Source: Abditibacteriaceae bacterium
Lineage (GTDB): Bacteria; Armatimonadota; Abditibacteriia; Abditibacteriales; Abditibacteriaceae
Direction of reading: 5' to 3'
DNA length: 10,487 nucleotides
Assembly (NCBI GenBank): GCA_031372065.1
Contig: JANMKN010000159.1
Span: 1-10,487 of the forward strand
Positions 2,110 through 10,487 of the stretch are shown piece after piece (position 1 is the stretch's first letter; each line of letters begins with the position of its first letter). Both the position numbers and the translations under genes were made by a program. The notes beneath the pieces were generated by a model. The model was not told the DNA's origin. It did no database searches and saw nothing but the letters and a program-made list of their open reading frames with translations.

Positions 2110-2224
2110 CCTCTCCCCTCCGGGGAGAGGTTAGGTGAGGGGCACGAGGTCGCTTGCGACCTCTTCCGATGCGAGAAACCCCTCACCCCAACCCTCTCCC
2201 CCAACCGCTGCGCTGGGGAGAGGG
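2110..2224. repeat. Composite REP-like palindromic element: two inverted units around a central hairpin
   Basis: CCTCTCCCC-TCC-GGGGAGAGG-TTAGGTGAGGGG (2110-2142); GAGGTCGC-TT-GCGACCTC (2146-2163); CCCCTCACCCCAA-CCCTCTCCCC-13 nt-GGGGAGAGGG (2179-2224). Confidence 0.85.
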
Positions 2225-3571
2225 AGGACTTGCCAAACTGATTCTTAGAATCATAGGCGATGCCGTTCCCAAAGCGCGCTGCAATTGATCGTCGGCATTA
2301 TTCCAATCGAACAAAGCACGCACGCGGTTGCCTTGGGCGCGGGTCAGAGCAGCCAAAGCGTCCAATACCTCGGCATTAGTGCCGCGCCCCGATTCGTAGC
2401 GCAATCCGGCCAGATGATAATTCTCCTGCGCGGCCTTTTGCGCCGCCTCTGCCGTGGCGATGTTCTTTTCGGCGGCTTGCTTTGTCGTCAATGCGGTTTG
2501 CACTTCGCGTTCGATTTGCAAATGGAGGCGTTCTATTTCGGCCTGCGCGCGATTTTGCGCGGCGCGGGCTTCGCTTTCCTGTGCGCGACGCAAACCTCCC
2601 GTCGAAAGCGGAATGCCGATGACCACGCCGGCCATCGCGCCACCCATCGAACTGCTGCGTTGCACTCCCAAATCGCCCATCGCCATCGCCGCGATTTGCG
2701 GGCGATAACTGCCGCGCGTAGCTTGCAGATTCTGTCCCGCGCTGGCGATGCGTTGTTGTGCCGCCTGCAATTCCGGGCGCTGATTTTTGGCTTGAGTCAG
2801 CAGATCGTTCAACTCCGGCGCGCTTTGCGGCGTGAAACTTAACGTATCCGCCACCGTAATTTGCGATTGCGGCGCGAGTCCCAAGGTGGCGCGCAATTGA
2901 ATCAAGGCGATGTCCACATCACGCTGCGCATCGGTAACGTTTTGCGCGGCATCGGCGTCTTCGGCTTCGTCACGCAACACATAAAGCTGCGGAATGCGGC
3001 CCGCTTCCAACGCGGCCCGGTCAATGCGCAGTCGTTCGGTTGTGGACTTCTGGCGTTCCTCGGCCACGCGCCGCATTTCTTGCGCGAGCAGCGCCTGCCG
3101 GTAAATGTTTTTCGTTTCCAACACCAAATCTTGCCGCACCGTTTGCTTGTCAGCTTCCGAGGCACCGCGCGCGGCTTGCGCTTGTTTCACCAATGCCGAA
3201 AGGCGCCCGCCCGTTTTCAGCGGCAACATCAGCATGACGTTCTGCCCGGCAAAGGCGCCGCGCGGGAGCAGCGTGATATTCGTCGGCATGACCGGCGCGG
3301 GCGTGGTCAGAATCGCGCCTTCGCTGCCTGCGGAAAGAAATGTCGTCGCTGAAACTTGCGGCTTCTTCGCCGCTTTTGCCGCCTGCACTTGCGCCTGCGC
3401 CATTTCCACTTCGGCCTGCGCGCCGCGCACAACGGGGCTTTCCCGCAAACCAATTTCAATCGCTTCATTTAGCGTCAACGCGCGATTGATAACCGGGCGC
3501 GTTTCATCGGCTTTTGCGCTCCCTAAGGTCGCGGCAAGCAAGCCGCAAAATACAAAGTTAAATCGTTTCAT
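2183..3571 (-). CDS. TolC-family outer membrane efflux protein, 462 aa
   Basis: Signal peptide MKRFNFVFCGLLAATLGSAKA, LTLNEAIEIGLRESP N-terminal motif, two OEP-like helical halves (LEAGRIPQLYVL; RYESGRGTNAEVLDA). Overlaps the RND gene end by 14 nt. Confidence 0.93.
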   Translation of the reverse strand: MKRFNFVFCGLLAATLGSAKADETRPVINRALTLNEAIEIGLRESPVVRGAQAEVEMAQAQVQAAKAAKKPQVSATTFLSAGSEGAILTTPAPVMPTNITLLPRGAFAGQNVMLMLPLKTGGRLSALVKQAQAARGASEADKQTVRQDLVLETKNIYRQALLAQEMRRVAEERQKSTTERLRIDRAALEAGRIPQLYVLRDEAEDADAAQNVTDAQRDVDIALIQLRATLGLAPQSQITVADTLSFTPQSAPELNDLLTQAKNQRPELQAAQQRIASAGQNLQATRGSYRPQIAAMAMGDLGVQRSSSMGGAMAGVVIGIPLSTGGLRRAQESEARAAQNRAQAEIERLHLQIEREVQTALTTKQAAEKNIATAEAAQKAAQENYHLAGLRYESGRGTNAEVLDALAALTRAQGNRVRALFDWNNADDQLQRALGTASPMILRISLASPPSPQRSGWGRGLG

Positions 3572-6500
3572 GAGTGCCTTCCACTTCGTCCGGCGCCTGC
3601 CATTGCCAATCGCGCTTGAGGAATGTTTTGTTCAGCCAACGGATGAAATCGTCCACATAGGTGTGCATGATGGGAATGTCAATGAGGCTCAAAATTGTGC
3701 CCACCAAAAGGCCGCCCAAAATGGTTGTGCCCAGCGGTTGATAAGCATCGAGGCCGGTTTTCGGAAAAAACGCGACGGGAATCATCACGATAATCGTGAT
3801 AAGGCTGGTCATCAAAATCGGGCGCAAGCGTTGCGGGCAGGCGCGGCGAATCGCTTCATCGCGTGGCACACCTTTATCACGCTGGCGCATGATGTTATCA
3901 ATCATCAAAATCGCTGCCGTGATGTCCATGCCGGTTAAAACAATGATCGCCATGATGGAAACCGTCGAAAACGCTTGTCCTGTCAGCCACAATGCGGTAA
4001 AAACGCCCGCCAATTCCAAAGGCAAACTGGCGATCATTTGCAGCGGCTGCAAGAAGCCGCGAAATTGCGCGACCAGAACTAAATACATGAAAATAATCGC
4101 CAGCAGCAAACCGTAAAGCAGGCGCCGAAACGAATCCATCATCTGCGTCATGTCGCCGCGCATTTCGATGCCATAGCCGGGCGGAAAATTCAGCTTTCCC
4201 ATCGCTTTCATCATCACTTCCATGCCGACATCCATCGAAGGCAAATGCCCTTGCCGGTAGTAGCCCGCGACGCCGATAACACGCCGCAAATTATCGTGTT
4301 CGATGACCGAGGGCGCGTGGCGAAATTCGATGTGTGCCACGCTTTTCAAGGGAATTTGCTGGCCGCTTTTGGTGGTGATGAAGAGGTTTTGCAAGTCTTC
4401 TTCGGTGCGCCGGTCACGCGGTTCATAGCGCAGCGAAATGGTATTTTGCCGCAAGTTCGGCAAGCGATAAAATTCGTCGGTGAGGCCACCACGCAGGGCA
4501 TAATAGGCTTGCCCCGAAATCTCTTCGGGCGTGAGGCCCACTTCCTGTGCGCGGCGCCCGTCCACTTTGATAATGTAATTCGGCACGCCCATCGTCGAAG
4601 TCAAAGCGGGCTGGAAAAAGTTACCCTGAATCGTCGCGTCGGTGCGCGCCAATTCCATTGTTTGCTGACCGAGTTGGTTCAGCACGTTCAAGTCTTTGCC
4701 ATAAATAACCAAGTGAATCGGCGCGGCGGCTGTCGCCATCACATCGCTGCCCATTTCTTTGATTTGCAAGCGCCGCAAGCCCGGAATGGTGGCTTTGGCT
4801 TCGGTTTGGATGGCATCAATCACTTGCCAGATGGTGCGCCCTCTCATTTCCTTGTCGGAAAACGTCAGCATCATGCTGGCGGCAAACGGGCTGGGCATTT
4901 GGTAGCCGGTGAAATACGGATTCCACGACTCCATCATGGTTTCCTGTCCGATTTCCAGCGAAGCGCGTTCGAGTTCGGAATGCTTCAGCATGATTTTTTC
5001 GAGGCGCTGCGCGGCGCGTTCGGTTTCCGAAAACGAGGTGCCCGGTTGCATTTCCATAAAACCGTTTGCTTGCCCCACATCGGCGAGCGGCATCATTTCA
5101 CTGCCGATGAACCAATAAAACGTAAAGCCGATTATCAGCGTTGCCAGCACGCGTGTGAAGTTGGCGAAACGATGCTTTAGCAGCCAACCAATCAAGTGAG
5201 CGTAACGATTTTCAAGTCGCACAAGGCCGCGCTGAAACGGGTCAACAAGCACATAAATCCATTTCAAAAACGGATGTTTTCTGTCGGCGTCGCGGGCACT
5301 TTCGGGGCGCAACCATTTGGCGCAAAGCAGGGCGGTCAGCGTGAAGGAAACTAACATCGAAGCCAACAAAGCGAAGATAATCGGCCACACCAATTCGACG
5401 AACATCAGTTGCGTGATGCCGCCGCAAAAGAGCAGTGGCGACAAGGCCAAAACCAGCATCAGCGTGGACGAAATCACCGCCAAACGCACTTCGGCAATGC
5501 CGTCAATGGTGGCGCTTTTCGGGTCTTTACCGAGGCGCAGATGATGTTCAACCGAGTGAATATCTATGATGGTGTCGTCTACAAGGCGCCCAATGGAAAG
5601 CAAGAGGCCAATCAGCGTGCCGGAATTAAACGTCATGCCAAACGGCACCATTGCGACAATCGCTAAGGCCAGCGAAGCGGGAATGGTAATCAGGCAAATA
5701 AGCGTGCCGCGCCATTCGCCGAGAAAGAATAAAACCGCAAGGCCGCACAGCACAATCGCCACGCCGAGTTCGTGCCAGACGTTTTCAAAAAGAATGTCCA
5801 CAAACTTTTTGTTGTCATAAGCTGCCTCGAATTTGACGCCGGGATTTTCGCGCTCTAAAGCGCGCGCTACTTTCATCACGGCGGGCACCACATAAGCCGA
5901 ACTGGCGCCCGGATTTTGAATAATCGAAACCTCAACGGCGCTTTTACTTTCGCCTTTTGTGCCCGGCTGATGGTTCAAAAAACGATAGGCGCTGCGCCGC
6001 TCCCAATAGCCATCCAGCACGCGCGCCACATCGCGGATATAAAGGACTTTTGGGGATTGAATGTTGGGTGTTGGGGTCTGAGAATTGGTCGTCGCAAGCG
6101 GATAATCCAAAATGTCTTCGGCGCGCAGAGCGCGATTGTCCACGCGCACGATGGCTTCGCGGTCACTGGTGGTGAGATTGCCCGCCGGACGGCTAACATT
6201 CTGTTCATCAAGGGCCTTTTTCACATCAAGAATCGAAAGATTGTAAGCCGCCAATTTTTCGCGGTCAACAATCACTTGCATTTGCCGCCGGAAGCCACCA
6301 AAAGGCACCACAGAATACACATTAGGCACGGTTTTGAGGCGGTTTTGCACTTCGTTGTCGGCAAACTCCCGCAAGCGTGCCGGAGTCCAACCTTGCGCCG
6401 CATCGCCGGTTAAGGCAAACGACAGCACCGGCAAATTTAGAGAATCAATCGGCACCACCCACGATGGCTTTAAGTTGGCGCCTGTAGACGGCAAATTCGC

Positions 6501-6884
6501 CTGCGCGACATTCAAAAGCGCCTGCACATCAAAGATCGCTTTTTTCATGTCGGTGCCATAGGGAAATTCCAGCGCCACGAGCGAAAAACCATCTTGCGAG
6601 GTTGAGCGAATGGTGCGCAAATTCATTACATTCACCATTTGTTCTTCGATGGGTTTCGAGACTTGCAATTCCATTTCTTCGGCGGATAATCCCGGCATCA
6701 TCGTCACCACGCCGACAATCGGGCTTTCCACATAAGGCGCAAAACGGCGCGGCAGAATTGAAGTGACGGCGATGATGGCCAGCACCACCGCCGCGACGTA
6801 AAACGCGATGACAACATAAGGATGTTCGATGCTCCATTGATGAATTAGATGAAGCGGATTGCGTTTGGGCGAGGCCGGTTTCAT
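3558..6884 (-). CDS. RND efflux permease (AcrB/CusA superfamily), Met-rich, probable Cu/Ag exporter, 1108 aa
   Basis: PGLSAEEMELQVSKPIEEQM, TM4 IGRLVDD, RLRPILMTS and typical RND TM layout. Start set at ATG 6884, which forms an ATGA overlap with the MFP stop. Substrate is inferred, not shown. Confidence 0.95.
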   Translation of the reverse strand: MKPASPKRNPLHLIHQWSIEHPYVVIAFYVAAVVLAIIAVTSILPRRFAPYVESPIVGVVTMMPGLSAEEMELQVSKPIEEQMVNVMNLRTIRSTSQDGFSLVALEFPYGTDMKKAIFDVQALLNVAQANLPSTGANLKPSWVVPIDSLNLPVLSFALTGDAAQGWTPARLREFADNEVQNRLKTVPNVYSVVPFGGFRRQMQVIVDREKLAAYNLSILDVKKALDEQNVSRPAGNLTTSDREAIVRVDNRALRAEDILDYPLATTNSQTPTPNIQSPKVLYIRDVARVLDGYWERRSAYRFLNHQPGTKGESKSAVEVSIIQNPGASSAYVVPAVMKVARALERENPGVKFEAAYDNKKFVDILFENVWHELGVAIVLCGLAVLFFLGEWRGTLICLITIPASLALAIVAMVPFGMTFNSGTLIGLLLSIGRLVDDTIIDIHSVEHHLRLGKDPKSATIDGIAEVRLAVISSTLMLVLALSPLLFCGGITQLMFVELVWPIIFALLASMLVSFTLTALLCAKWLRPESARDADRKHPFLKWIYVLVDPFQRGLVRLENRYAHLIGWLLKHRFANFTRVLATLIIGFTFYWFIGSEMMPLADVGQANGFMEMQPGTSFSETERAAQRLEKIMLKHSELERASLEIGQETMMESWNPYFTGYQMPSPFAASMMLTFSDKEMRGRTIWQVIDAIQTEAKATIPGLRRLQIKEMGSDVMATAAAPIHLVIYGKDLNVLNQLGQQTMELARTDATIQGNFFQPALTSTMGVPNYIIKVDGRRAQEVGLTPEEISGQAYYALRGGLTDEFYRLPNLRQNTISLRYEPRDRRTEEDLQNLFITTKSGQQIPLKSVAHIEFRHAPSVIEHDNLRRVIGVAGYYRQGHLPSMDVGMEVMMKAMGKLNFPPGYGIEMRGDMTQMMDSFRRLLYGLLLAIIFMYLVLVAQFRGFLQPLQMIASLPLELAGVFTALWLTGQAFSTVSIMAIIVLTGMDITAAILMIDNIMRQRDKGVPRDEAIRRACPQRLRPILMTSLITIIVMIPVAFFPKTGLDAYQPLGTTILGGLLVGTILSLIDIPIMHTYVDDFIRWLNKTFLKRDWQWQAPDEVEGTHETI
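6047..6088. repeat. Degenerate heptamer tandem array (6 x 7 nt), in frame inside the RND gene
   Basis: + strand CTTTTGG GGATTGA ATGTTGG GTGTTGG GGTCTGA GAATTGG; all units end in TG(G/A). Confidence 0.55.
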
Positions 6885-9313
6885 CGCACGACCACCTGCC
6901 CTTTCATCATGTCCATGCCGCACGCGAACGAAAGCGTTTTTCCACTTTGCGGCGTGAACTCTACCGCTACCGGTTGATTAAGCGGCAATGCTTTTCTGAT
7001 TTTTAAGTCGGGAAAAACCACTTCGGTGCCACAGCCTTCGGCGGCGATGCGCGTGAAGATTAAACGCGCCGGAACGCCCGCTTTTAGCGTGATATTGGGC
7101 AGTGAAAAACCTTGCGCGCTGACGCTGATTTTGATAGTTTGCACGCCACTGCTTGGCGGGCTTCCAGCCCGCTGTTTTGCAGGCTGATTTTCTGCGCTCC
7201 ATAGTGGCTTATCGGGCATCACCGAATCGTGTTCTTTAAGGTTTTCATAACCGCGATAAATCACGCGCGCACCGTCTTTGAGGCCGCTGATTATTTCGGT
7301 GTAATCTCCGTTGGTGACGCCGGTTTTTATGGGCGCTTGATGCGCGCGATAGTGGCCACCCGCCATTAGCGGCGTGAGTTTCATGTGACAGATCGGGCAC
7401 AATCCCGGATGATTTTGCCTGATTTGCGGGTGCATGGTGCAGGTGTAAATGGGGTTTTCCGGTGGCGCGTCTTCCATTGTCCAAACCGTGGCTGTTTGCT
7501 GGGAAGCAATGACTTCGCGGCTTGTATCGGCGCGCCGCACAATCGCAGCGGAAGGCACTTTAAGCGCGCCGAAATTTCGTGACTTGGCGATGTCCATCAC
7601 AATGGCTTCGCCCGGTTTGAAACGATTCTTTTCGTTGGGCGCGACGGCCTCCACAATGCCAAGGCGACTTTGCGCATCGGCGGAGGGAAAAACCGCGCTG
7701 ACGGTGGTTTGCAGGCGCTTTTTCGGGTCGGAAGGCGAGCGCACTTCGACGCTGGCGCCGATTTGAATTTGATCAAGATCGCTTTGCGCCACATTCGCTT
7801 GCAATCGAATCAGGTTGACCTGCTGAATCTTTAAAATCATGCTGCCCGCATTGACAAGTGAACCGGGCGCAACCAGACGCTGCGCCACAATGCCATCGGT
7901 AGCGGCGCGGATTTCGGTGTAGCCACGAATGACGTGCGCTGTTGAAAGCGAGGCTTGCGCTTGCTGGGCCAGCAGCGCGGCGCGGCCTTGTGCCAAGCGC
8001 GCTTTTTCGGCGCCGTGCGAGGCGCCTTGTGCGGCTTGACGGGCGCCCTGTGCAGCAGCGGCGGCTTGTTGGGTTTTGGCCGCCGCCGTGGTAATATCGG
8101 CTTGCATTCGCCGCACGCGTTGCACGGCCATGTCGAGTTCGGCTTTGCGGCCTTGCACTCCCGCTTTGGCGCGTCCGATTTCGGCCTGCATTTGCGTTAC
8201 TTTGGCTTGGGCGCTTTGCACGCGGGCTAAGGCCGCTTCGCGATTGCCTTGCGCCACGCGAATTTTGGCTTGCATTTGCCGCACGCCAGCTTCGCTTTTT
8301 TGCACGCTTGCTTGGGCCGCACGCACATCGTTACTCACTTCGGCCACACGCGAGAGCGCCTGCTTTACTTTGGCATCGGCGCTTTTGGCTGCCGCTTCGT
8401 CCTGCTGAAATTCCTCGCGCGAAATGGCGCCTTGTTTTACAAGTTCTGCCGAGCGCTTGACTTTTTCGCGCGCGAAACTTGCGTCGGCACGCAAGGCTTC
8501 GACTTCCGCCTGCGCCTGTGGCAAGCGCGCTTTGGCGGCGTCCAGCGCGGCGCGTGCATTTTCGACATCGCTGCGCGCATCGTCCAAAGCGGCTCCGGCG
8601 TCTTCGATTTCGGCACTGCGCGTTTGCGCTTCGCGCTCTGCGGCCTGAGCCTCGGCCTGCGCGCCAGTCACGCCGCGCGTTGCCGCGTCTTGTGCGGCCT
8701 GCGCGTCTCGTATGCTGGCGCGGGCCACTTCGATACCGCTGGCCGCTTCGCTCTGCGCCGCTTTGGCAGAGGCCAATTCGCCTTGTGCGACGGGCAAACC
8801 GCCCGCTTCGCGTTTGGCTTCTGTGGCTACGCGCCGCGCTTCGGCTTGTGCCTGTTGTGCTTCGGCGCCTGCCATGAGGCGCTCTTGCGCGGCAGCGGCT
8901 CCCGCGAAGCGCGCTTCGTTTTCGCGCTGGCGCAATTCATCACTATCGAGGCGCGCCAGCAACTGGCCGCGCCGCACTTTGGTGCCGGGATAAACCGGCA
9001 TTTCCACAAGACGCCCTGTTACGCGCGCCGCTATGTCTTGCTCTGTCCAGGCGATAGCCGTGCCGGGATAAGTCACGCGGGCTTCCAAAGTGCCGCGCCG
9101 CGCCGTGACAACTGCAACGGGCAGGGCGCCAATAGGCGGCTTCATCACCGACATATCCATCGCTTGCGCCTCAATGACACTCATTGCGCCCGGACGCCGG
9201 TAATTTTGCACGACATAACGCGCTCCGAAAAAGACTAAAACTAACAGCGCCAAAGTGCCGATAGTGCCCCAGGGCACGCGGCGCGGCGATTCTTCGTGTA
9301 AATCAACGGACAT
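6881..9313 (-). CDS. RND periplasmic adaptor (membrane fusion protein) with very long helical hairpin, heavy-metal-binding domain and C-terminal cupredoxin domain, 810 aa
   Basis: ATG 9313 with SD GGGAGGGG (9320-9327); N-terminal TM; lipoyl halves VYPGTKVRRGQLLARLD and YTEIRAATDGIV; YTCTMHPQI...PGLCPICHMKL; C-terminal GCGTEVVFP...FACGMDMMKG. Confidence 0.93.
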   Translation of the reverse strand: MSVDLHEESPRRVPWGTIGTLALLVLVFFGARYVVQNYRRPGAMSVIEAQAMDMSVMKPPIGALPVAVVTARRGTLEARVTYPGTAIAWTEQDIAARVTGRLVEMPVYPGTKVRRGQLLARLDSDELRQRENEARFAGAAAAQERLMAGAEAQQAQAEARRVATEAKREAGGLPVAQGELASAKAAQSEAASGIEVARASIRDAQAAQDAATRGVTGAQAEAQAAEREAQTRSAEIEDAGAALDDARSDVENARAALDAAKARLPQAQAEVEALRADASFAREKVKRSAELVKQGAISREEFQQDEAAAKSADAKVKQALSRVAEVSNDVRAAQASVQKSEAGVRQMQAKIRVAQGNREAALARVQSAQAKVTQMQAEIGRAKAGVQGRKAELDMAVQRVRRMQADITTAAAKTQQAAAAAQGARQAAQGASHGAEKARLAQGRAALLAQQAQASLSTAHVIRGYTEIRAATDGIVAQRLVAPGSLVNAGSMILKIQQVNLIRLQANVAQSDLDQIQIGASVEVRSPSDPKKRLQTTVSAVFPSADAQSRLGIVEAVAPNEKNRFKPGEAIVMDIAKSRNFGALKVPSAAIVRRADTSREVIASQQTATVWTMEDAPPENPIYTCTMHPQIRQNHPGLCPICHMKLTPLMAGGHYRAHQAPIKTGVTNGDYTEIISGLKDGARVIYRGYENLKEHDSVMPDKPLWSAENQPAKQRAGSPPSSGVQTIKISVSAQGFSLPNITLKAGVPARLIFTRIAAEGCGTEVVFPDLKIRKALPLNQPVAVEFTPQSGKTLSFACGMDMMKGQVVVR

Positions 9314-9319
9314 AGAAGT

Positions 9320-9420
9320 CCCCTCCCAAACAAATACGCAAAAGGCGCGCGACAACAAGCCAGCACGAAAAATAGTGCCGCCTGAACCTTCAGGAAACGA
9401 GCGATTTGTTAAGCGAGAGG
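9320..9420 (-). promoter_or_regulatory. Predicted SD-sequestering mRNA structure between the leader and the MFP gene
   Basis: mRNA CCUCUC-G-CU-U-AACAAAU-CGC (9420-9401) can pair with GCG-U-AUUUGUU-U-GG-GAGGGG (9339-9320), enclosing two small hairpins at 9381-9394 and 9361-9380. Confidence 0.65.
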
Positions 9421-9912
9421 CGGAGCGCGGCCCAGCAAAGTGGGCGGCTCAAGGAGCGAACGAGGCGGAAGAAATAAAGGAGTTGAATAGTCACTTTGGA
9501 CAAAGCCAAGCAAAGGCGATGGCGTTTCAAACGCGGGCAGTGGCCCGCTGGCAACGCTGTGCGCGGCAGCTAAAGAAAGCAGCGACGAAGCGGTTTGACC
9601 ATTGGGCGTTACGGTTTCGCCCGTCAAGCGCACCAATTTGCAACAAGTGCCACCAATATGGGCGCAAACGGGCTTGGGTGAGGCAGTTTGAACTACTTTT
9701 GGACAGCAACAAGAGCGTGGCGCGGCAGTTTTTGTTTTGTCGCATCTGCTACAACGCGGTTTGACGGATGTTTTTGAAGGCGCCGCGCACACGGTGGCGG
9801 CGCTCCCGACGCGCCCTGTCATCGGACACGACCATGCCAATTGCGGTAGTAGCGAAGCTAACATCGCTAACAAAGCCCACAGGGCAATTCTGGGTCGGCG
9901 CCAACGTTTCAT
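9409..9912 (-). CDS. Secreted Cys-rich leader protein with C-terminal RAPP ribosome-arrest motif (DUF2946/CutF/CruR-like architecture), 167 aa
   Basis: ATG 9912 gives a signal peptide (MKRWRRPR, hydrophobic core, AWS/C), 10 Cys (CSRC, CCC, CC and singles), a Pro-rich tail and the ending LLGRAPPLA*. The longer start at 10032 would cross a terminator. Confidence 0.82.
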   Translation of the reverse strand: MKRWRRPRIALWALLAMLASLLPQLAWSCPMTGRVGSAATVCAAPSKTSVKPRCSRCDKTKTAAPRSCCCPKVVQTASPKPVCAHIGGTCCKLVRLTGETVTPNGQTASSLLSLAAAHSVASGPLPAFETPSPLLGFVQSDYSTPLFLPPRSLLEPPTLLGRAPPLA

Positions 9913-9924
9913 GTTTGGTTTAGC

Positions 9925-9948
9925 ACGCCTGCTGTGCAAAGAAGTTCC
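9925..9948 (-). promoter_or_regulatory. Possible ECF-sigma-type promoter upstream of the leader gene
   Basis: GGAAC (9948-9944)-N16-CGT (9927-9925), 12 nt before the ATG; no clear SD. Confidence 0.3.
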
Positions 9949-9951
9949 AGT

Positions 9952-9992
9952 AGAAACAACACAGGCGACGCTTTTAGCATAGCGTCGCCTGT
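9952..9992 (-). terminator. Intrinsic terminator downstream of the DUF1080 gene
   Basis: Perfect 12-bp stem ACAGGCGACGCT (9961-9972)/AGCGTCGCCTGT (9981-9992), 8-nt loop, followed by GTTGTTTCT on the minus strand, about 30 nt after the stop. Confidence 0.75.
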
Positions 9993-10021
9993 AAAAAGAA
10001 GCATCCCTTAATCGGGTGATT

Positions 10022-10487
10022 TTATTTTTCAATCAGCCAGATATTGCGGAAGAAAATTGGGTTGCCATGGTTTTGTAGCACAATCGGCGCGGGCGCGGCG
10101 CCTTCGGGCTTTCCAGCCCCGGTTTTAGCGGTGATTTCGTATTTGTCATGCACTACGACGCCGTTGTGCTTTAAGGTAATCACGGCGTTTTTGATTTTCT
10201 TGTCGCCCTCAAACTGCGCGGCTTGGAAATCAATATCGTAGGTTTGCCACGAAAGCGGCGGGTAATTCATGCTGACAAGGGGCACCTGCTGCTTGTAAAT
10301 TTCGCCGCACAAATCGCCAACGGCGTGTTTGTCGTCGAGTTTGAAGCCAAAGGAATCGAGAATTTGCACTTCGTAGCGGCCTTGAATATAAACGCCGCTG
10401 TTGCCGCGACTTTGACCGCGCGCGGCGGGCTTAAACGGCTCGATAAATTCCAAGTGCAGCGTGAAATTCTTCACATCGCGCTTGGTT
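10022..10487 (-). CDS. DUF1080 (3-keto-disaccharide hydrolase family) protein, 5'-partial
   Basis: Motifs FTLHLEF, RGNSGVY, YEVQILDS, WQTYDI and LQNHGNPIFFRNIW; the frame stays open to the window edge. Confidence 0.92.
   Translation of the reverse strand, partial: TKRDVKNFTLHLEFIEPFKPAARGQSRGNSGVYIQGRYEVQILDSFGFKLDDKHAVGDLCGEIYKQQVPLVSMNYPPLSWQTYDIDFQAAQFEGDKKIKNAVITLKHNGVVVHDKYEITAKTGAGKPEGAAPAPIVLQNHGNPIFFRNIWLIEK

Follow-up and report, generated by a model that had tools for sequence, protein, structure and literature searches.

Several bacterial leader peptides couple their own translational arrest to expression of the gene behind them, and our comparisons with them draw on parts of the reports cited. 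For cutF-cutO of Rhodobacter capsulatus, mutation of an anti-Shine-Dalgarno (anti-SD) sequence and copper-induced stalling that unmasks the Shine-Dalgarno (SD) sequence have been described (PMC9973294; bioRxiv 10.1101/2025.02.05.636593), and the principle of the switch considered below is thus already published. In Bordetella pertussis, CruR (Bp2923), a DUF2946 protein whose arrest was demonstrated in PMC12992588, stands at the head of the operon containing bfrG, carries a CxxC and, near its C-terminus, RAPP, and by its arrest keeps the downstream genes expressed (PMC9426467). SecM, encoded ahead of secA, and the RAPP peptides ApdA and ApdP (PMC10951233) monitor protein export and precede sec genes, with no Cys-rich sensor described for them in the portions used. 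Here we consider a 167-amino acid leader ending in RAPP that heads the operon of a resistance-nodulation-division (RND) pump, on the minus strand of a 10,487-nucleotide stretch (the window) of contig JANMKN010000159.1 from an Abditibacteriaceae bacterium of the phylum Armatimonadota. An earlier note on this DNA had suggested that the end of the leader gene sequesters the SD of the next gene until a ribosome stalls at RAPP. On balance, we lean toward the view that a RAPP-arrested ribosome would hold the SD of the adaptor gene open and so keep the pump operon ON, probably upon metal binding by the exported part of the leader. The underlying observation, the predicted pairing of this SD with the end of the leader gene, is real and well supported by comparison of related loci.

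The window leader shares with CutF, with every element here being predicted, an exported Cys-containing leader, a C-terminal Pro arrest motif, an SD-hiding stem, a stall that means ON, and a target of the metal-defense type. It differs in that CutF has a PPP motif dependent on elongation factor P and a stem described as intergenic, whereas here the motif is RAPP and the last codons together with the stop provide the anti-SD; the window leader is also longer (167 amino acids, 10 Cys, no DUF2946 score) and its target is a non-CusA RND operon. The survey in PMC9973294 lists OEP (the most frequent), ACR_tran and CusB/CzcB among the neighbors of CutF-like leaders, which thus lie next to RND efflux genes as the window leader does, but it took proteins of <150 amino acids, a filter that a 167-residue leader would fail, and is dominated by Pseudomonadota and Bacteroidota. 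In the CruR system, Rho termination operates over a 162-nucleotide gap, copper relieves the arrest and the target is an importer (PMC9426467), in contrast to the predicted SD occlusion and the exporter here. The hidden Markov model (HMM) of DUF2946 (PF11162) found no match in the window leader and one among 44 relatives at E 0.039, ruling out membership by this model; yet the leader is best read as working like CutF. No paper dealing with RAPP leaders from Armatimonadota emerged from our literature search; the phylum is not named in the three short text supplements of PMC9973294, while members may be included in File S1 of that paper or among the PMC12992588 source data. In the reports cited, metal sensing by arrest peptides has so far been tested in Rhodobacter and Bordetella; the present case would extend it to a poorly studied phylum and an uncharacterized RND subfamily. 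The features on which the argument depends are as follows, the P- and A-site placement using the stall register of PMC10951233 and PMC12992588.

9409..9912, minus strand: leader open reading frame (ORF), 167 amino acids, most likely from ATG 9912, to RAPP-L-A-stop
9418..9429, minus strand: RAPP arrest motif, predicted P site 9423-9421 and A site 9420-9418
9414..9420, minus strand: anti-SD arm, spanning the second Pro and the Leu codon and the first base of Ala, pairing with 9322-9328 at probability 0.72-0.79
9401..9410, minus strand: 5' strand of the inner closing helix, covering the last bases of the stop codon and 8 nucleotides beyond it, probability 0.94-1.0
9344..9394, minus strand: three inner hairpins, 9394-9381, 9379-9362 and 9361-9344, from folding
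9329..9339, minus strand: 3' strand of the inner closing helix, pairing with 9401-9410
9320..9327, minus strand: SD block GGGAGGGG of the adaptor gene, with GGAGG 8 nucleotides before ATG 9313-9311
9308..9321, minus strand: local hairpin over the 3' end of the SD and the start codon (GGAC 9321-9318 with GUCC 9311-9308), from folding
6881..9313, minus strand: RND periplasmic adaptor (membrane fusion protein, MFP), 810 amino acids, above the TIGR01730 cut-off

Folding of 9440-9300 (minus strand) with ViennaRNA, from which minimum free energy (MFE) and centroid structures and pair probabilities were taken, places the stem in both the MFE and the centroid structure, and it recurs in at least three longer folding windows with SD-helix pairs at 0.6-0.8. 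The adaptor SD is matched by CCUCC in the 16S tail of the same genome. The earlier note had placed RAPP (9429-9418), CCU CUC (9420-9415), AACAAAU (9410-9404) and AUUUGUU (9335-9329) correctly throughout, and its AACAAAU/AUUUGUU and CGC/GCG helices are borne out at pair probabilities of 0.94-1.0. The pairing it drew between CCU CUC and the SD is also predicted, but in a preferred register with GGGAGG (9327-9322), the GAGGGG register that it chose requiring one G-U. Where it counted two internal hairpins the fold has three, the third at a probability of about 0.5, and an additional local hairpin over the start codon had been overlooked. That the SD would be hidden in the free mRNA agrees with the SD-helix probability of 0.72-0.79 in this fold. 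The ribosome footprint is taken as +11 to +16. When it was masked with the first RAPP Pro in the P site, the opening cost of the 8-nucleotide SD fell from 11.8 kcal/mol to 7.3, 6.3 or 8.4 kcal/mol, according to footprint length; a footprint to about +14 abolishes the SD helix in folding and leaves weaker helices. Among 300 shuffles of the upstream part, 4 gave a drop of at least 5.5 kcal/mol. The supposition that a ribosome at RAPP frees the adaptor SD therefore stands as regards the breaking of the SD helix, but the release is partial (11.8 to 6.3-8.4 kcal/mol): masking only halves the cost because the local hairpin covers the AUG, and it persists at 0.97-0.98 with the leader arm masked.

Taken alone, the window is suggestive, and the weight of the argument falls on the comparison across the family. 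An RND match was present in each of the 61 genomes searched (the window's own and 60 relatives), a close orthologue in about 25 of them, and a RAPP leader in 14 of 25 upstream regions. Two collection scans supplied 157 more loci, mostly from Armatimonadota, 140 of them containing the RND N-terminus, and the resulting upstream set comprises 166 regions (140, 25 and the window). Upstream sequence reaches at least 5 kb in 117 of these, and some genomes are counted twice. With a fixed filter, a leader precedes the orthologous RND in 66 of these 117 loci, and the same filter gave 6 matches on the reverse strand of all 166 regions. One locus of a same-genus genome (L046, on contig C9 of G002), whose leader is frameshifted in the assembly, was added by hand; its MFP and RND genes are frameshifted as well, probably by assembly indels. 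After removal of duplicates 61 distinct leaders remained, and the next-gene start was set for 53 of them, 38 by hand before folding and 15 by a fixed rule, with 8 left out. The junction geometry supposed for the window recurs at these loci: in the predicted folds, 31/53 junctions pair the SD of the next gene with the RAPP-to-stop arm, compared to 2/86 control junctions crudely called in the window's own genome. Pairing is predicted in 28/39 junctions with gaps of up to 135 nucleotides and 3/14 with longer ones and, by crude lineage clusters, in 11/25 (10/16 with short gaps). Masking cuts the SD opening cost by more than 2 kcal/mol in 35/53 junctions vs 2/86 controls.

Counted from the P-site Pro, pairing is highest over +8 to +18 (probability 0.56-0.73), with the Pro codons themselves at 0.07-0.28. 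From these models, the anti-SD of the family appears to consist mainly of the tail codons and the stop rather than the Pro codons; the latter as a family rule are ruled out by the position profile, and the earlier assignment of the Pro/Leu codons as anti-SD holds for the window and a few relatives (e.g. L189, L203, L036, L125), not across the family. Because Pro codons are C-rich, arms swapped between loci served as a further control. The arm-SD duplex averages -20.0 kcal/mol for native pairs and -14.8 kcal/mol for swapped ones; 16/53 natives, as against 6/120 controls, rank within the best 5% of swaps, the window ranking 0.041 among 38, and 27/53 rank within the best 5% of synonymous recodings, a group that excludes the window and L046 (0.26). 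The first gene downstream varies among MFP, outer-membrane factor (OMF), YtkA-MFP, HMA, HMBD/YHS, DUF2231, MerB-like and unnamed proteins while the pairing stays, so the arm appears to have been re-fitted to different first genes more than once. Taken together, the native-versus-swapped comparison and the position profile point to SD occlusion at the leading edge of the ribosome as the conserved output, and we consider it very likely that the stem is functional. The strongest native duplex (-35.4 kcal/mol) is that of L189:3706-3927, where the post-leader gap folds into a very long, near-perfect nested inverted repeat.

The sequences themselves, their conserved layout and the pairing predicted from them are our basis for inferring export, arrest, sensing and the sign of the response, and we propose the following course. 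Transcription would start at an extracytoplasmic function (ECF)-type element just upstream of the leader, whose motif is seen and whose use is supposed, and the leader, with a signal peptide recognized by inspection, would be exported during its translation. On ribosome-free mRNA the stem, predicted in the window as in the 31 junctions above, would conceal the SD. When inducer is absent, the pull of export would free the arrest, as judged from SecM and CutF, the ribosome would finish and the stem would refold. When inducer is present, metal (copper most likely) would bind to the Cys cluster, the pull would weaken and the stall would be prolonged with 9423-9421 in the P site; a stalled footprint to about +14 would, by the computed geometry, remove the SD helix, and translation of the pump operon would rise. 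That a stall means ON seems to us probable; that metal lengthens the stall, by analogy with CutF, we favor only slightly.

The points that weigh against this scenario concern the fold in the window, its conservation and the substrate of the pump. Taken as a whole, the fold shows no unusual stability (z -0.60, 48/200 shuffles as good), an SD opening cost of at least 11.8 kcal/mol occurs in 44/300 shuffles in which the upstream part was shuffled and the initiation region kept fixed, and the window's codon choice is no better than synonymous recodings (rank 0.215). These values would suit a chance fit of the C-rich Pro codons to any G-rich SD. However, the pairing lies mostly past the Pro codons, native arms beat swapped arms likewise carrying RAPP codons and SDs, and the control junctions stand at the 2/86 already given; we regard chance as highly improbable. 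Further, the release in the window is at best from 11.8 to 6.3 kcal/mol, and the opening cost of a 6-nucleotide SD after masking is 5.3 kcal/mol compared to 3.0 for the median control. The opening cost is likewise lowered, to 8.1-8.3 kcal/mol, by a ribosome whose A site holds the stop codon, and folding therefore cannot tell arrest from ordinary translational coupling, in which any finishing ribosome would open the stem, RAPP would merely slow it, and regulation would reside at the ECF-type promoter, a promoter-like element that is itself conserved. Coupling does not lead one to expect that RAPP is held 2-3 codons before the stop in 54/61 leaders despite a mean column identity of ~16% among aligned leaders, nor the choice of a motif that is avoided in proteomes and arrests robustly, according to the part of PMC12992588 used here, and we give it little credence.

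As to conservation, SD-arm pairing is not predicted in 22/53 junctions, including 11/14 with gaps longer than 135 nucleotides. Between the window and L046, its one alignable relative, 8/10 inner-helix pairs are unchanged and the first two inner hairpins are kept, with no double changes in the stem; in its own fold, L046 has the SD helix at probability 1.0. Five Abditibacterium-type junctions share a 12-pair closing helix with one double change. Across 15 Fimbriimonad-type junctions, a helix drawn by hand from the folds is kept in 81% of cells, with double changes in 2/8 closing pairs and a score reached by 30/500 shuffles; RNAalifold did not recover the drawn closing helix from these 15 junctions, its sole consensus helix being CCUC/GAGG at -0.16 kcal/mol. 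In a contig ~91% identical to the window (run X4), among the 40 differences listed, both closing helices are unchanged and one G-U to G-C change falls in an inner hairpin. As to the covariation that the earlier note had proposed to check across orthologous gaps, double changes are few and classical covariation is weak.

As to the substrate, the window RND scores 333 bits against the CusA/CzcA model TIGR00914, below its curated cut-off of 701; its closest solved structure is MdtB, and CusA is absent among the 15 solved matches at E<=1e-60. CusA identity is not supported by that score and best match. Because the RND fails the CusA/CzcA cut-off, metal export is suggested only through the adaptor's heavy-metal-binding PF19335 (E 3e-8) and cupredoxin-like PF13473 (E 3e-12) domains and the neighboring genes. 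The window RND belongs to a Met-rich subfamily, 60-94% identical across the phylum and under all NCBIfam RND cut-offs. An RND that is no canonical metal exporter, with YtkA and cupredoxin-like domains that could serve cofactor delivery, would also suit a CruR-like switch of the opposite sign, in which arrest is the default, the ligand relieves it, the stem refolds, Rho may terminate, and the operon is ON when metal is scarce; the motif of CruR is RAPP rather than PPP, and copper relieves its arrest (PMC9426467). Yet RND-MFP-OMF systems are, by established knowledge, exporters, and the genes neighboring the relatives' leaders include HMA, MerB-like, a MerR regulator and an HMBD/YHS P-type ATPase. 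In a crude composition check, third-position G near RAPP (0.29) is close to the upstream values (0.31-0.36), leaving no clear G-poor Rho loading tract. We consider the opposite sign unlikely. The factor that makes metal either prolong or relieve arrest at RAPP becomes testable in this setting.

The leader runs from a basic and then hydrophobic N-terminus, a predicted signal peptide by inspection, through 10 Cys (residues 29-91) and a Pro-rich spacer to the C-terminal LLGRAPPLA-stop, with RAPP at residues 162-165 of 167 and the stop at 9411-9409. Hydrophobicity was itself one criterion of the filter for relatives' leaders. The Cys residues form a putative metal or thiol sensor:

9640..9828, minus strand: Cys cluster, residues 29-91, with WxC after the signal, CxxC at 54-57, CCC at 68-70 and CC at 90-91

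Among 44 aligned leaders C91 is invariant and C29, C42 and C68 are nearly so, with four Cys columns conserved to at least 90%; the R and both P of RAPP are invariant in the same alignment, partly by selection. CC (52/55 leaders) is far more constant than CxxC (24/55), which would fit a leader that senses export or the thiol/disulfide status of the envelope, SecM-like and again with stall as ON. The ECF-type element upstream is in line with such sensing; genes for DsbA and thioredoxin are also among those preceded by RAPP leaders (PMC12992588), and the CutF model itself runs through disulfides (bioRxiv 10.1101/2025.02.05.636593), in the parts of these sources considered. The downstream genes, however, handle metals and are not Sec or Dsb, and we think this possibility quite unlikely compared to metal sensing. 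Relatives' leaders are 132-184 amino acids long, the window leader exceeding the survey limit mentioned above. Pfam and NCBIfam searches gave no family match for the window leader; the nearest Atlas cluster with DUF2946 (23% of its members) scores 0.91, under 30 clusters without a family, and a leader profile search returned 13 proteins, all of them lacking a Pfam family and just one bearing a name ('hypothetical protein'). Annotation likely misses these leaders because they match no Pfam family.

The P-site Pro codon of RAPP is CCT in 46/61 leaders and the majority codon in 16/25 lineage clusters, compared to 163/2402 Pro-Pro pairs (7%) in long ORFs of the window's own genome, 21/136 in the downstream genes and 35/115 other Pro-Pro pairs within the leaders; the A-site codon is CCC or CCT in 47/61. 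The window's own pair is CCG CCT. A P-site CCT yields CCUCC, yet those bases rarely pair with the SD in predicted folds, and the bias could possibly reflect another register for the anti-SD, an influence of the codon on arrest, or a site kept free of structure. The same genome (G000) carries three further Cys/His-rich RAPP or RGPP leaders: on C147 (plus strand, stop 942) SD-arm pairing of 0.59 is predicted before a gene for 169 amino acids across a 24-nucleotide gap, on C393 (plus strand, stop 13275) 0.88 before a 1036-amino acid protein resembling an RND permease, and on C329 (minus strand, stop 30031) only 0.14.

Upstream of the leader lies a candidate promoter, which we take to resemble ECF-sigma promoters:

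9924..9948, minus strand: promoter-like element GGAAC-N16-CGTG, with boxes and 16-nucleotide spacing kept in G002/L046

In G002, both boxes and their spacing are conserved while the spacer sequence differs. GGAAC occurs at -55..-21 in 21/54 leaders, vs 3.8% of random windows and 41/2302 ORFs of the own genome; in the window and 20 other leaders this ECF-type motif lies ~38 nucleotides before the leader start. The element at 9924..9948 predicts a very short 5' leader ahead of ATG 9912, and an SD-like word precedes the start of only 9/55 leaders. The ECF-type element thus suggests that control has a further tier at transcription and that the leader mRNAs are near-leaderless. No ECF sigma gene turned up beside the loci in a crude motif search. 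A separate promoter in the intergenic gap, which the earlier note had named as evidence against a leader switch, did not appear, a scan of 9200-10200 limited to the sigma-70 type finding no sigma-70-like promoter.

In 15 loci (L076, L081, L083, L086, L090, L096, L098, L100, L101, L105, L106, L107, L127, L147 and L148), most of them Fimbriimonadaceae-type, an in-frame ATC or ATT stands 5-8 nucleotides after the GAGG of the gated gene (GAGAG at one locus), 54-66 nucleotides past the leader stop, and many of the gated proteins begin with CGxxxCxC. An in-frame ATG, GTG or TTG is lacking upstream in 12/15 and in the next 17 codons in 14/15, and initiation of the gated gene at AUC or AUU is likely on these grounds. 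It is possible, if doubtful, that Armatimonadota own a portable arrest-switch module outside DUF2946, in which an ECF-type promoter would drive a near-leaderless, Cys-rich exported leader, RAPP would carry a selected P-site CCU, the leading-edge anti-SD (+8 to +18) would be re-fitted to whichever gene comes first, AUC/AUU starts would tighten control in one lineage, and an uncharacterized Met-rich RND subfamily would answer to a possibly non-copper signal. If so, dozens of natural variants would be at hand for probing what sets the sign of a RAPP sensor, CutF-like or CruR-like.

The leader heads a co-directional MFP-RND-OMF operon, with 95 nucleotides from its stop to the MFP ATG, and the surrounding features are these:

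3558..6884, minus strand: RND permease, 1108 amino acids, Met-rich (PF00873)
2183..3571, minus strand: outer-membrane factor, TolC-like (PF02321)
9960..9993, minus strand: terminator-like hairpin 3' of the hydrolase gene, 13 pairs, 8 of them G-C, with a T-rich tail
Upstream of the leader operon: 3-keto-disaccharide hydrolase gene (PF06439)

The hairpin at 9960..9993 likely separates the leader operon from the hydrolase gene. Two other starts were considered and rejected: TTG 10032 for the leader (207 amino acids), since relatives align from ATG 9912 and the terminator-like hairpin intervenes at 9993-9960, and TTG 9358 for the MFP, since a strong SD precedes ATG 9313. Downstream of the pump operon, a double zinc-ribbon protein with a DUF1559-like segment is encoded at 979-1947 and a transglutaminase-like gene lies at 105-1094, both on the minus strand.

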